Virus record (IMG/VR): IMGVR_UViG_2925914267_000008
Coordinates: 1 to 11,263 of that record
DNA: 11,263 bases
DNA from: a virus
Taxonomy: Duplodnaviria > Heunggongvirae > Uroviricota > Caudoviricetes
Strand: one strand, 5' to 3'
Shown here: one piece after another, positions 6,580 through 11,263 of the stretch
Position numbering within the stretch: position 1 is the first letter of the stretch
How the letters are laid out: each line of letters opens with the position of its first letter
Made by a program: the position numbers and the translations under genes
The notes under the pieces: model-generated
Database searches by the model: none
What the model saw: the letters and a program-made list of their open reading frames with translations, nothing else
Told to the model about the DNA's origin: nothing

Positions 6580-7092
6580 ATGCATCGTATAGACACGAAA
6601 ACCGCGCAGAAGGATAAGTTCGGCGCGGGTAAGAACGGTTTTACCCGTGGTAACCCCCAGACCGGCACACCTGCCACCGATCTGGATGATGACTACTTTG
6701 ACATGTTGCAGGAAGAACTTTGTAGCGTTGTTGAGGCATCCGGTGCCAGTCTGGAGAAGGCGCGGCACGACCAGCTGCTTACCGCACTTCGTGCGCTGCT
6801 GTTAAGCCGCAAGAATCCGTTTGGCGATATCAAATCGGATGGCACTGTGCAAACGGCTCTCGAAAACCTTCAATTGCGAGAATCATTCACAGGTGTGGTT
6901 GGTCAGGCCGTTAACCAGAAAATGAGCGTGGCAATAGCGTCGGCATCAGCAACATTCACCGCTGACCAGGTTATTGTTGGTGAGTCATTATCTGGCAAGC
7001 AGTACCGTGTAAGTTCGGTAAGCGAAACTATCAACCTCACCACGACTGGGGCGGGCGGGATGGATACAGGAGCAGCCCCTGCCAGTGGTTGA
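6580..7092 (+). CDS. Phage tail fibre protein, N-terminal part, ending at an in-frame TGA
   Basis: The start [47 protein letters not shown] is a conserved tail-fibre N-terminus. The ATG is 4 nt after the gp48-like stop, with GGAG upstream. The frame ends at TGA 7090-7092. Confidence 0.7.
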
Positions 7093-7626
7093 GTTGCTAT
7101 TTACCTTATTTACAACCCAACGACCAACACCTCAGCATTACTTGGTGTTAACACGACAACCGTCGTTGCGCCCACAGTCTACGGCGGTGCAAACATGCCA
7201 GCGGGATATACGGCGAGCGCACTCGTATCCGTCTGGAGAACAACAAGCGGCTCTTTGCTTCTGAATGGGTACCAGCGAGGTCGAAAATTTTGCATCCCGC
7301 GTGTAGATGTACTGACCACAAGCAGTAACCCAGGACCATACTCACCAATCCCTCTTAGCGCAGCCGTACCGCTAAACGCTATAGCAGCGAGTGGTTACGC
7401 ATTCTGTAACTCAGGCTCTGGTTCTGGGTTTGCGGTTTTGTCTGTCGGGTCTGATGCAAATGGGCTTGGGTATTTTCAGGTGTATGCCGGGCTGGTTGGT
7501 TCGCTAGGGAGCGATATCTATTTTGAGAATACCCTCGCTGAACCTCAAAAACTTTACTACACGTTTACCTGGACAACGCCAGCAGTGTCAAATGCCACCA
7601 TTGGGATAAGCGGTTATACGATCTAA
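7093..7626 (+). pseudogene. Tail fibre distal part, in the same frame as 6580..7092 across one TGA
   Basis: Same frame as the upstream tail-fibre ORF, with no further stop from 7093 to 7626. The 34 codons between the TGA and the first ATG (7195) read as Thr/Asn/Ser/Val/Gly-rich, fibre-like sequence, and there is no RBS ahead of 7195. Confidence 0.45.
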
Positions 7627-7636
7627 GGAGTGAATT

Positions 7637-7804
7637 ATGTCTGTTGTATATGTGCAGTTCTCTGATGAGAAAGAAACAGAAATTGTCTCTGTTTTTGCAT
7701 CTCCGGCCGACCCGGATTACTACCAGTTTTTGGGGGAGGTAGAGGGGGATGATGAGCGGCTTAAAATCTTTTGGAAGCAATTCCCTCAGCATGCCGTAGG
7801 TTGA
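7637..7804 (+). CDS. Hypothetical small protein (55 aa), not in the ORF track
   Basis: ATG at 7637 is preceded by AAGGAG at 7625-7630 with 6-nt spacing. Translation: MSVVYVQFSDEKETEIVSVFASPADPDYYQFLGEVEGDDERLKIFWKQFPQHAVG. It sits directly after the tail fibre, where assembly chaperones or cargo genes usually lie. I do not recognise a family. Confidence 0.4.
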   Translation: MSVVYVQFSDEKETEIVSVFASPADPDYYQFLGEVEGDDERLKIFWKQFPQHAVG

Positions 7805-7994
7805 TTGGATAATAAGTCGCTAGGTGAGAACTGGCGGATAATTTTTCTAGATAAGTTTTTAGCAACCAGCATTCCTGTTTTTTATATCCAGGATTTTGGT
7901 TTACAGTACTTATTTTTAACTGTATTGAGGATGGCGAAAACAGATTGAAAATTACATCCAGATCACCCAATCGATAATCAACCATTATAAAAAA

Positions 7995-8014
7995 GGCTCC
8001 CTTTTTAGGGAGCC
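7995..8014. terminator. Intrinsic terminator hairpin between convergent genes
   Basis: Perfect 8-bp stem GGCTCCCT / AGGGAGCC with a TTTT loop. On the minus strand it is followed by TTTTTTATAA, 9 nt downstream of the acyltransferase stop. On the plus strand it is preceded by an A-run, with only a weak T-tract after it. Confidence 0.65.
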
Positions 8015-8022
8015 TTGTGTGG

Positions 8023-9273
8023 TTATATTTTTGCTTTGCTGATAAAATTATCTAGGGTTTTTCCTACGGTGCGGCTAAGTATCACTGATTTTTTCTCTAT
8101 TAATTGATAAAATATCATTGAACCAATTAAAGAAAGAGTGACGAATACTAAAAAGGAAGCAATGTATGCTAAATAAACGTTATTTGTATGAATATATACA
8201 TATAGGTTTATTGGCATTATTGCAGATGAAAGAACTAACCAGTGAACAAGGTATAAAGAGAAAGAAATTTTCCCAAAAAATTGAACAAGTTTAGTGGATA
8301 GGAAATCGCGAATGTATCCTCTGGACATTACTAGAATTAGCAATAATATTGCACCGACACCACGTAAAAACTCGTATGGGTGGTAAGGGAACATCCCAGG
8401 AATCGATAAGTCTTGCATGTTTATTAATGGGGCAACAAAATAGTTCCCTGGTATAAAAATCCAACCCCAGGGATAGAATACCGGGCAACTTTGAAGTATC
8501 ACTATAGCTAATATCATTAGCAAAGTAATAACGTATTTTTCTTTGTTGTTAAATAAATTGCTTGTTTTTTCGTCGGCAAACAAGATGGATATCCATGCGC
8601 CAATGAGAAGAAAAAACACATAATATCCGTAACTAAAGATAGTAAATAAAAATAATAAAAGAATGCCATGCCTTGAGTTATTTCTTCCTACCTGAGCAAC
8701 AATTAATAGTAACAGCGAGCCCATAAACTCAGTCGACATTGACCATATTACAGGGTTAAGAAATCTAGTTGAAAAATCTGTGGTATATAGCGTAAGAATG
8801 CCTTGCTTTATTACTTCATCGAAAGCTACATTTTCATCGTGATCATAACGAAATCCAGATTTTACTAAGATATATCCAATAATACAGGAAGCAAATACAG
8901 GAACACCAAGTCGAATAAAACGACGTATTAATGATGCTATAAATGTTGTATTTGCTTTGAAGGCGCCAAGAAGAATTGCGCCAGATAAGATGAAAAAAAC
9001 TATAGTAGCAAAATTACCATTGATAGTGAATACGAATGGTGTCGTTTCAGTAAATTCGTAGAATTTTGAAAGCCAATAAGGGAATGCATCTGGGTAGTGT
9101 GAAAGCATAAAAAGCTTTGTTTCACCAAAAAAATGACCATAAGCAACAATTATAGCCATTAGTCCGCGTAACCCATCAAAATATAGGATTCTGTTCTTTT
9201 TTTGTTCCAATTTATTGAACCTCATCATTTCAAAATAGTGAGCAATGATAGTGTTAAGAGTGTAGTAAAGCAA
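8023..9273 (-). CDS. Acyltransferase family 3 integral membrane protein (Oac/OafA-like O-acetyltransferase candidate)
   Basis: The N-terminal motif RILYFDGLRGLMAIIVAYGHFFGE and the later FFILSGAIL segment are typical of the acyltransferase-3 family. The protein is very hydrophobic with many predicted helices. The gene is AT-rich (roughly 30% GC) against GC-rich neighbours. The start is uncertain: TTG at 9273 with GAAGG upstream, or ATG at 9228 or 9225. Confidence 0.85.
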   Translation of the reverse strand: MLYYTLNTIIAHYFEMMRFNKLEQKKNRILYFDGLRGLMAIIVAYGHFFGETKLFMLSHYPDAFPYWLSKFYEFTETTPFVFTINGNFATIVFFILSGAILLGAFKANTTFIASLIRRFIRLGVPVFASCIIGYILVKSGFRYDHDENVAFDEVIKQGILTLYTTDFSTRFLNPVIWSMSTEFMGSLLLLIVAQVGRNNSRHGILLLFLFTIFSYGYYVFFLLIGAWISILFADEKTSNLFNNKEKYVITLLMILAIVILQSCPVFYPWGWIFIPGNYFVAPLINMQDLSIPGMFPYHPYEFLRGVGAILLLILVMSRGYIRDFLSTKLVQFFGKISFSLYLVHWLVLSSAIMPINLYVYIHTNNVYLAYIASFLVFVTLSLIGSMIFYQLIEKKSVILSRTVGKTLDNFISKAKI

Positions 9274-9396
9274 TGCCTTCTGGAATCGAAGTTAAAACAA
9301 CGGAGCTTAAATTAGTTGAAGTGAGATTTGCTAATAAAGGTAATAAATTCAATCAATTACTTCTTGAGGGCGTATTGGTGTTAAGAAGATTTTAAC

Positions 9397-9405
9397 ATTG
9401 TATCA
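9397..9405 (-). promoter_or_regulatory. Possible extended -10 element (TGATACAAT on minus strand) upstream of the acyltransferase
   Basis: TGnTACAAT motif about 125 nt upstream of the acyltransferase start in AT-rich DNA. No clear -35. This is a sequence-pattern guess only. Confidence 0.2.
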
Positions 9406-10232
9406 CATACCACGGGGGCATTCTGATGAAATCAGAAAAATAGACAGGGTAATAGCTATCGATTGATGATGGTGGTTGCTATGCTTCATATAGAGTTTCC
9501 GATACTATCACGCACATTATTAATGATAGCAGAACGGTGGAGTTTAATGGTTGGCCAAGCCTTGTTGAACAATGGTTAATCATGCTGTTTTAATATACCT
9601 TCTTTGGAGAAAAATGCTAACAACTCCAACGTGCATTGCCCGAGATTGGCTGTAACCATAATAATTTTATGGAGTTTATTGAATAAACCCGAGTTAGTAG
9701 ACAGGATGACGCCTACCGGAACACCCGTTATGCGATGCGGACGCTGTCCGGCATACCCAGCACGGTCATCCGGTTTAGCGCTTTGACCATCGCCGTTTCT
9801 GCCACTGAACGACGGTGATAACCCACTTTCTTTTTCCAAACATAATTGCTGGATAGGGTCAGGGTTATTATGATGCTTGGAATTATCGAACGCTGCCGCA
9901 GAATGTTAGAGAACGGAGCAATCCGGCAACGTGATCGGTGTGGGGGTAAAGACGATTTATAAATACTTTCCTGTCACAAGTCCAGCGCGTAATGCCAGTT
10001 CCCGAGTGTAGGTATGATCATGAAAAAGTGGTGCGCACCTAAATATCTTTAATACAGGCGTAGGATGCCATGCATTAGGATCGGGTTAAACAGGGATGTT
10101 TACGTTCTGGAAAACTGCCCGCAGATAGCCGGCGTGATCTAGAATGATTTTTGTGTACATATATGTGTACTGTACAAAAGAAGATTTGGCTTTTAATTTC
10201 AATAAAAACAATAAATTGAATTGTTTTTAAAA

Positions 10233-10255
10233 TATATCCATTTAACTAAGAGGAC
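10233..10255 (-). tRNA. argW: tRNA-Arg (argW) 5' fragment, first 23 nt only
   Basis: The minus strand reads GTCCTCTTAGTTAAATGGATATA, identical to the first 23 nt of E. coli argW as I recall it, and lies 75 nt downstream of yfdC as expected. The next bases (TTTTAAAAACAATTC...) are AT-rich and cannot form the rest of a tRNA. Confidence 0.55.
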
Positions 10256-10330
10256 AATGCGGCATGAGTATACCCGCTAATGGAGTGCGGGGTAAGTACG
10301 CTGCCGCTCGATTGCTTAAACCCTCGCCAT

Positions 10331-11263
10331 TTATGCCGGGTTTTTATAATTTTTCTTAATGTTTTCCGCACGTTCTGCTTTTTGGCGTGCTTCTGCTTTA
10401 CGCTTATTGCTCATGTCGTTACGAATCTGTGCATGACTCATTAACGCGAAGATAAAGGTGCCGCCGCAGATGTTCCCCGCTAAAGTAGGTAGTGCGAAGG
10501 GCCAGATGAAATCGCTCCAGTGCAGCGTACCGTTAAACACCAGATAGAGGATTTCAACAGAACCGACCACGATATGGGTGGTGTCACCCAGGGCAATAAG
10601 CCAGGTCATCAATATAATCACCACAATCTTTGCCGCACCCGCTGCAGGAAACATCCAAACCATAGTGGCGATCAGCCAGCCGGAAATGATCGCGTTGGCA
10701 AACATCTCGCTGGGGGTGTTCTTCATCACATCCATGCCGATTTTGACAAATGCATCGCGAGTTTCTTCATTGAAGATAGGCATATATTCAAATGCCCACG
10801 CCGCAATACCTGTCCCGAGAATATTACCCAGCAGCACGACGCCCCATAACCGTATAAGTAAGCCGACGTTGCTCATTGTCGGTTTTTGCATGACGGGTAG
10901 TACCGCAGTCACGGTATTTTCGGTAAATAATTGCTGGCGGGCCATAATGACGATAATAAAACCAAAGGTATAACCGAGATTCTCCAGCAAGAAGCTGCCC
11001 GGCACACCTTCCAGTTCGACTTGAAATATCCCTTTTGCCAGTAACGAAGCGCCCATCGACAGACCCGCCGCAATGGCTGACCACAGTAGCGCCATTGCGT
11101 CGCGTTCCAGCTCTTTTTCACCATCCTGGCGGATATGCTCATGAATTGCCATCGCCCGGGAGGGGAGTCGGTCTTCATCTATTTCTATTTTTTTGCCGCG
11201 CTCTTTTTCTTCGCTCTCAACTTCAATTTCGTCGCTGTGTTGATCAATTTTGTCGTTGTCCAT
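10331..11263 (-). CDS. yfdC: Formate/nitrite transporter family inner membrane protein YfdC
   Basis: The 310-aa translation (MDNDKIDQHSDEIEVESEEKERGKK...NYKNPA) matches E. coli YfdC as recalled. It is a full-length ORF whose start codon is the last three bases of the window. Confidence 0.9.
   Translation of the reverse strand: MDNDKIDQHSDEIEVESEEKERGKKIEIDEDRLPSRAMAIHEHIRQDGEKELERDAMALLWSAIAAGLSMGASLLAKGIFQVELEGVPGSFLLENLGYTFGFIIVIMARQQLFTENTVTAVLPVMQKPTMSNVGLLIRLWGVVLLGNILGTGIAAWAFEYMPIFNEETRDAFVKIGMDVMKNTPSEMFANAIISGWLIATMVWMFPAAGAAKIVVIILMTWLIALGDTTHIVVGSVEILYLVFNGTLHWSDFIWPFALPTLAGNICGGTFIFALMSHAQIRNDMSNKRKAEARQKAERAENIKKNYKNPA

Follow-up and report, generated by a model that had tools for sequence, protein, structure and literature searches.

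A kilobase without intact genes beside argW is probably the decayed attR end of an SfV-like prophage and carries predicted integrase arm sites of the Phi24B type

In the serotype-converting phages of the SfV group and in Sf6, the O-antigen modification genes gtr and oac are placed between the tail-fibre genes and the attachment site. The integration site described for the SfV group is thrW, and that of Sf6 is the 3' region of argW. Phage gtr operons have Dam/OxyR phase-variable control regions with paired upstream GATC sites, and IS ends are known to be able to create promoters. The integrase of the phage Phi24B uses a 24-bp crossover site, at which recombination was demonstrated experimentally (PMC7581858). 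According to that report, the minimal attP of Phi24B is between 350 and 427 bp long and has nearly equal arms, only this minimal length was mapped, and IHF is dispensable in vivo for integration (PMC7581858). In our literature search, we found no paper that maps the arm-type sites of the argW 5'-end integrases of the Phi24B family.

Here, a window of 11,263 nucleotides (the whole stretch of viral DNA that was analysed) was compared with these systems. The window starts with Mu-type tail and baseplate genes (Phage_Mu_Gp48 and Baseplate_J in Pfam), which are 96-98% identical to those of the Shigella/E. coli phages SfV, SfI, SfII, and SfIV up to position ~6880. It ends with yfdC (10331-11263, minus strand), 96-98% identical to yfdC of E. 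coli. Between the start codon of an acyltransferase gene (ATG 9228) and a 5' fragment of argW lies an interval of 1004 bp (9229-10232) without an intact gene, and its parts are listed in Table 1. We are fairly confident that this gap of about 1 kb is the decayed right (attR) end of an SfV-like prophage with a Mu-type tail, integrated in the 5' part of argW by means of a tyrosine integrase module of the Phi24B type. The tail-fibre gene of the prophage seems to be split into a 170-aa ORF that matches the N-terminal part of the profiles and a 143-aa ORF that matches the last ~140 positions of an 812-position PHROG (6580-7092 and 7195-7626, respectively). Since this gene looks broken, the prophage may be defective and its sites may be relics. 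Two small ORFs that overlap each other were also noted between the tail-fibre remnant and the acyltransferase terminator. One of them (7637-7804, plus strand, 55 aa) matches PHROG 20339 of unknown function (E 2e-16), and the other (7761-7985, minus strand, 74 aa) gave no match.

Table 1. Features of the acyltransferase-argW region, with positions in the window.
Feature	Position	Strand	Basis or remark
Acyl_transf_3 membrane acyltransferase	8023-9228	minus	PF01757, E 3.5e-21
Non-coding leader moving with the acyltransferase cassette	9229-9444	minus	76% identity to L018 5763-5983
S24 peptidase (UmuD-like) gene, putative remnant of the last 36 codons	9456-9563	plus	tblastn
Truncated IS903-type MITE-like element (tentative)	9559-9669	plus	outer inverted repeat GCCTTGTTGAACAAT starts at 9559
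IS5-family (IS903 group) 3' stub	9671-9851	minus	terminal repeat GGAGTTTATTGAATAAACC at 9671-9689; stop codon at 9728-9730
Pin/Gin/Hin-type serine invertase, last 48 codons (HTH_7), frameshifted	9861-10011	plus	tblastn
140 bp without match	10012-10151		blastn, tblastx
P' arm of Phi24B-type attP (attR side)	10152-10232	minus	homology to O157:H7 Stx2a prophage and p10A
Predicted integrase arm-type sites GTACACA	10170-10164 and 10158-10152	minus	12 bp apart, at +63/+75 from the core
IHF-like box AAACAATAAATTG	10206-10218		one mismatch from WATCAANNNNTTR
argW core duplication at attR, first 23 nt of tRNA-Arg(CCU)	10233-10255	minus	alignment to the annotated tRNA

The initial annotation had reported no convincing gene between 9274 and 10232, and we reached the same result. 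The longest ORF lying wholly inside the interval encodes 87 aa (9576-9839, minus strand) and spans two IS remnants, and in none of the ten independent copies of the locus did gene callers place a gene in the gap. The gap is better taken to begin at 9229, because the acyltransferase most likely starts at ATG 9228 and not at an upstream TTG. This ATG is conserved in a 90%-identical homologue, and the collection contains, in 47 blocks, exactly the 401-aa product that starts there. The short ORFs of the interval had been described as devoid of recognisable domains, which agrees with the absence of any Pfam or PHROGs match among them. When raw frame translations of the interval were searched with Pfam, nothing was obtained but a chance match to Zn_ribbon (E 6), and it took particular relatives as queries to identify the remnants. 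Neither a megablast search of all complete E. coli genomes nor a blastn search of phages with the interval as query returned a match. The whole locus was found only in draft assemblies and metagenomes and is absent from finished genomes. Its ten other copies are at least 99.9% identical, and consequently they are useless for conservation analysis and allow no test of constraint within the lineage.

The mixed base composition described previously was reproduced, with a GC content of 31-39% at 9200-9699, 46-52% at 9600-10099, and 35-40% at 10100-10399. All of the interval except the 140 bp without match was assigned to parts, and its content is ordinary, as all the parts are of known kinds. Degraded phage DNA close to the attachment site was one of three explanations offered for the interval by the initial annotation, and it proved to be the main one: about 550 bp consist of stubs of an S24-like gene, two IS903-type elements, and a serine invertase. 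The GC-richer core is a pile of such gene and IS stubs, and it largely corresponds to frameshifted fragments of known genes. Going inward from yfdC, the proposed order would be the argW duplication, the 81-bp P' arm, a junkyard, and the 216-bp leader of the acyltransferase. The junkyard would be composed of 140 unassigned bp, a dead invertase tail, two IS903-type stubs, and a dead UmuD-like tail. IS insertions followed by deletions may have destroyed the accessory genes that lay ancestrally next to the attachment site.

The putative S24/UmuD-like remnant is moderately supported. It is 39% identical to a 153-aa ORF of a viral contig (L064; tblastn, E 9e-5), and the DNA identity is 78% over 9507-9557. 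The ORF of L064 matches Peptidase_S24 (5.9e-9) and is located directly beside a P' arm, with dinI, tfa, and tail-fibre genes coming after it. In the window, only the last 36 residues are left, and the catalytic part of the Peptidase_S24 domain with its Ser-Lys dyad is absent. The neighbouring stub would be the first part of an IS903-type MITE. This assignment is weaker than those of the other parts and is based on short, moderately significant matches, namely 80% identity over 60 nt to E. coli SMS-3-5 (L025 3001-3060) and 70% identity over 110 nt to a plasmid of K. michiganensis (L145). In these two sequences, we observed an element of ~175 bp with inverted GGCTTTGTTGAATAA repeats (L025 2998-3170 in the kps region of SMS-3-5, and L145 1500-1672 on the plasmid). 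It looks like a MITE derived from IS903-group elements, and in SMS-3-5 it is placed amid the IS debris of the capsule locus.

The second IS stub matches 54 plasmid records annotated as 'IS5 family transposase' with 80-85% identity, each in two pieces (blastn). The two pieces are separated by a 78-bp in-frame internal deletion between CATCGCC microhomologies (9785-9794 in the window). The complete transposase ends with ...GHHRRSVAETAM, 26 aa, and VKALNRMTLLGMPHSIRIA, and the window has GYHRRSVAETAMVKALNRMTVLGMPDSVRIA. The deletion exemplifies slippage or illegitimate recombination inside the dead element. Members of the IS903 group have GGCTTTGTTGAATAAATC-like terminal inverted repeats and a DDE transposase of ~307 aa. 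The stub has kept one repeat and the last ~30 transposase codons (~180 of ~1050 bp), so it is a remnant and not a functional member. The minus-strand peptide GYHRRS..., considered as an integrase fragment, is the tail of this IS903-group transposase. An 18-nt inverted match between 9666-9683 and 10198-10215 was treated as chance, because of its AT-richness and because its right arm belongs to conserved P'-arm sequence, also found in phages that lack the IS.

The invertase stub was identified by comparison with a 187-aa recombinase of E. coli p10A, residues 140-163 of which are encoded in frame 3 and residues 162-187 in frame 1 of the window (combined E 1e-10), with a DNA identity of 74%. The p10A recombinase has Resolvase and HTH_7 domains, and its gene adjoins the same P' arm in p10A. 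The stub itself is a frameshifted HTH_7 tail with no catalytic domain, and its translated frames have no Pfam match. A search for gix/hix-like crossover sites (AAACCNNGGTTT-type) and for long repeats gave nothing meaningful. For the 140 bp between the invertase stub and the P' arm, blastn found no match in complete E. coli genomes (E up to 0.1) and only 24-nt chance hits in phages (query 9995-10155), and tblastx found none in any comparison locus.

On the other side of the stubs, the acyltransferase gene belongs to a cassette. The similarity to P2-like E. coli prophages covers 7983-9444 (84% overall) and then stops at 9444, which defines the cassette as an intrinsic terminator located after the gene (8016-7993), the gene, and the 216-bp leader. 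The leader resembles the region upstream of the 90% homologue in these prophages, where the homologue is located between the tail-fibre assembly and sheath genes. This acyltransferase 'moron' cassette was probably acquired as a unit. The acyltransferase has few homologues. The gene shows no similarity at the DNA level in the phage collection, and no relative was confirmed in a search of genome contigs. Homologues of 55-61% identity were observed in Pantoea stewartii (L023 and L024), in chromosomal ABC-transporter polysaccharide clusters, adjoining WavE-family and glycosyltransferase genes; such clusters are the likely origin of the phage-borne acyltransferase. We also observed that the cassette (84%) and tail-fibre/tfa DNA (68%) are colinear with the P2-like prophage (window 7000-7793 and 7983-9444; L018 5763-8160), in which tfa and the sheath gene flank the cassette in the classical moron slot. 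This colinearity suggests that the cassette and the tail-fibre module were exchanged as one. An acyltransferase cassette of the O-antigen type, equipped with its own leader and terminator, appears to move between P2-like and SfV-like prophages beside tail-fibre DNA.

The initial annotation had also proposed that the interval might hold the promoter and control region of the acyltransferase. This is plausible for the leader, which was co-inherited with the gene in another phage family, but not for the rest of the interval. The acyltransferase promoter would thus be situated within the leader. A consensus promoter scan of the leader returned no passing -35/-10 match; an extended -10-like TGATACAAT (9405-9397, minus strand) is a candidate selected by eye and is not conserved in L018. 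The folding energy of the leader is not better than that of shuffled sequences. Two known modes of control were considered and rejected. Dam/OxyR phase variation does not fit, as no GATC is present between 8845 and 9932, and for RfaH control of the ops/JUMPStart type, no GGCGGTAG was seen on reading the leader alignment. Alternatively, the IS and MITE stubs could supply an outward promoter or a regulatory barrier for the acyltransferase, with a control region extending to ~9700. The ability of IS ends to make promoters speaks for this idea, as do the failure of the conserved leader to pass the promoter scan and a sigma-70-like TTAGCA-17-TATATT (9620-9592) that lies inside the MITE stub and points to the acyltransferase. 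We consider it unlikely, however, since such matches are no more numerous than expected by chance and this one is located ~365 nt upstream of the acyltransferase ATG, and since in the P2-like prophage the same leader precedes an intact gene with no IS material.

At the opposite border, the presence of an argW fragment was borne out. The minus strand of the core duplication reads GTCCTCTTAGTTAAATGGATATA and is the same, in 23 of 23 nt, as the beginning of the tRNA-Arg annotated beside yfdC in E. coli PK13. The window leaves the tRNA sequence at 10232, and ARAGORN detected no tRNA in the window. The core thus adjoins yfdC on one side and non-tRNA phage DNA on the other. In E. coli O157:H7, the piece shared with the window is the right end of the Stx2a prophage, and the left end of this prophage carries a tyrosine integrase gene and an intact argW. 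This layout indicates that the crossover of such phages takes place in the 5' part of argW, of which they bring along a copy. Judged by this comparison, the tRNA gene is regenerated at the integrase end, and a 5' fragment of 23-24 nt remains at the far end beside yfdC. In GenBank records of argW Stx2a phages, a 24-25 bp duplication or attL is annotated at this site. The cognate P4-type integrase (Arm-DNA-bind_3 and Phage_integrase domains) and the intact argW at the other end are those of relatives: in the prophage studied here, that end would be ~30 kb or more beyond the window, and the contigs with this locus break inside the prophage. We also observed that in O157:H7 (L015 2816-4209) the 3' side of the argW regenerated by the Stx2a prophage carries intS and a P22-like prophage remnant, so that both ends of one tRNA gene are occupied by different integrase systems.

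The DNA that follows the core inward is homologous to the P' arm of characterised family members. It is 84-87% identical to the O157:H7 Stx2a prophage and to E. coli p10A over 10152-10330, and this similarity begins exactly at 10152. A sensitive blastn search showed that many complete E. coli genomes match the window from exactly this position on and share the 81 bp left of the argW fragment. At the inner border of this arm, the initial annotation had pointed out an operator-like TGTGTAC-ATATA-TGTGTAC-TGTACA at 10152-10176. The motif is exactly there, with TGTGTAC at 10152-10158 and 10164-10170 and TGTACA at 10171-10176. The number of TGTGTAC words in the window alone is insignificant (5 found, 1.9 expected; 9 of 200 shuffles reach 5), and hence the significance of the motif comes from the comparison with other phages. 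For this comparison, IMG/VR was scanned for the 23-mer core, and the 119 hits were sorted by the core flanks. The P' arm set consisted of 12 IMG/VR loci and the O157 and p10A copies (n = 14). GTAC was present at both +63 and +75 in 12 of the 14 arms and was shifted by 1-2 nt in the other two. Among the 11 non-redundant P' arms (mutually less than 85% identical), the mean pairwise identity was 0.73 at +60 to +82, 0.42-0.53 between the core and this block, and 0.32 just beyond it, so the similarity collapses right after the distal site. GTACnCA at +63 and +75, the other strand of the motif noted earlier, is the only strongly conserved block of the P' arm; its consensus atGTACtCAtatATGTACACA is the reverse complement of that motif. 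A weaker conserved box (atTGaTTTaa, +21 to +30) coincides with a match to the IHF consensus, from which the window deviates at one position and Phi24B and O157 at none. The reading of this box as an IHF site is tentative, because IHF was found dispensable for Phi24B integration (PMC7581858). The P' arm is apparently intact, as it keeps everything that the family conserves, i.e., two predicted arm sites and an IHF-like bend site.

The same motif was found on the other side of the core. In 22 distinct P arms, TGTACNCA is present at -183, -159, and -148, immediately before int. When 6-mers were counted without bias in the non-redundant arms, GTACAC, TGTACA, and TACACA ranked highest among the words common to both arms. 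The motif therefore occurs in both arms at fixed distances, and it is absent from the 23-nt core. The integrases of Phi24B and O157 have a PF13356 Arm-DNA-bind_3 domain in addition to the catalytic domain. Since position-locked repeats are combined with an arm-DNA-binding domain of the integrase, we read the motif as a pair of integrase arm-type sites, and the P'1/P'2 pair is the most likely identity of the operator-like repeat. The N-terminal domain of the integrase would bind the GTACnCA repeats and bridge to the core during excision (attL x attR), in a lambda-like manner. On balance, we slightly favour the broader proposal that the TGTACNCA repeats, three in P and two in P', are the arm-type sites of the Phi24B family, that their spread from -183 to +82 explains an attP longer than 350 bp, and that the Stx-phage module is a portable cassette shared with SfV-like serotype-converting myoviruses, intact here amid decay. 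The minimal attP of 350-427 bp (PMC7581858) would fit a requirement for the -183 site, as a 350-bp construct would lose this site if its arms were symmetric. Next to the P-arm repeats, an (A/T)TGGCAAGTGAAC block was observed at about -140 to -125, directly after the -148 site (L030, L031, L036, L113, L115, and L135). It is invariant in these six non-redundant P arms of the non-Stx subgroup, and Phi24B-type Stx phages have TTAGCAAGTGAAC there. This block might serve as an Xis site or belong to the int promoter.

The operator-like appearance of the TGTGTAC repeat was thus justified in one respect, as the repeat is very probably bound by a protein, but the comparison favours integrase arm-type sites over a transcriptional operator. 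Seen in isolation, two direct copies close together, overlapped by a TGTACA palindrome, do look like an operator, either of a phage repressor or of a regulator of the acyltransferase or yfdC. We regard this as very improbable. The repeat is ~920 bp away from the acyltransferase start, beyond four gene or IS stubs, and it lies downstream of the yfdC stop codon. Its distance from the argW core is fixed in phages with unrelated neighbouring genes (LPD38 protein, S24-like, invertase, and others), the same octamer occurs three times in the P arm beside int, and the cognate integrases carry the arm-binding domain. A functional small RNA, which the initial annotation had allowed for, or a micro-protein missed in annotation is scarcely credible in spite of ~1 kb without an annotated gene, several ORFs of 22-87 aa, 140 unassigned bp, and weak promoter-like hexamers on the minus strand (9620-9592 and 9909-9882), because an Rfam 15 covariance-model search of 9000-10500 on both strands gave no match (E up to 1), the interval contains no terminator-like site, folding z-scores of the leader (+0.7) and the 140 bp (-1.1 and -1.7) are no better than shuffles, the ORFs have no Pfam or PHROG match and the longest is a chimera of two IS stubs, 7 promoter-like sites were found, fewer than the 9.9 of shuffles, and the 140 bp have no homologue wherever searched.

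For annotation, the value of reading the motif as arm-type sites within a decayed attR end is that an empty kilobase can be described as prophage-end debris and an attachment-site arm, which guards against over-reading it as a regulatory RNA or an operator. The mildly new element, derived from sequence comparison, is that arm-type sites are explicitly predicted for the Phi24B/argW integrase family. This prediction is testable, and it concerns an integrase family that carries Stx2a phages in pathogenic E. coli.

The closest known system is that of Phi24B (vB_EcoP_24B, HM208303) and the argW Stx2a phages such as VT2phi_272, PA8, and PA28, which have the same 23/24-nt argW core and the same placement of the phage next to yfdC. 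The genome of Phi24B starts with the core (attP core at L148 18-40) and the P arm before int, and it ends with a matching P' arm. The P' arm block of Phi24B is TGTGTACATAAATGGGTAC, and the TGTGTAC-N5-TG(T/A/G)GTAC repeat and the IHF-like box are located at the same distances as in the window. Unlike in Phi24B, the module is carried here by an SfV-like, myovirus-type prophage with Mu-type tail genes and not by a short-tailed Stx phage, no stx genes are present in the window, there is an additional overlapping TGTACA, and the integrase is known from relatives only. The debris next to the arm also has known counterparts. The terminal repeat and the transposase C-terminus of the IS903 group match the window stub, and among the Pin/Gin/Hin invertases, known from tail-fibre switching, the HTH_7 tail of the window resembles the Pin-like recombinase of p10A, with 48 of 187 codons kept and no crossover sites. 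As in SfV, SfII, SfI, SfIV, and Sf6, a gene for O-antigen-type modification is located between the tail-fibre genes and the attachment site; in contrast to the SfV group and Sf6, the crossover is in the 5' end of argW, and the region close to the attachment site has decayed.

The predicted arrangement of sites resembles the attP of phage lambda, in which the N-terminal domain of Int acts on the arm sites P1, P2, and P'1-P'3 and IHF bends the DNA. In both systems, a repeated motif that differs from the core occurs in both arms at fixed distances, tandem P' copies are separated from the core by ~60-80 bp, in which an IHF-consensus box lies, and the integrase has an arm-binding domain. The differences from lambda are the motif itself (TGTACNCA), a layout of 3 + 2 sites instead of 2 + 3, an outermost P site at -183, which makes attP longer, and the dispensability of IHF reported for Phi24B integration (PMC7581858); the sites of the Phi24B family compared here are predicted ones.
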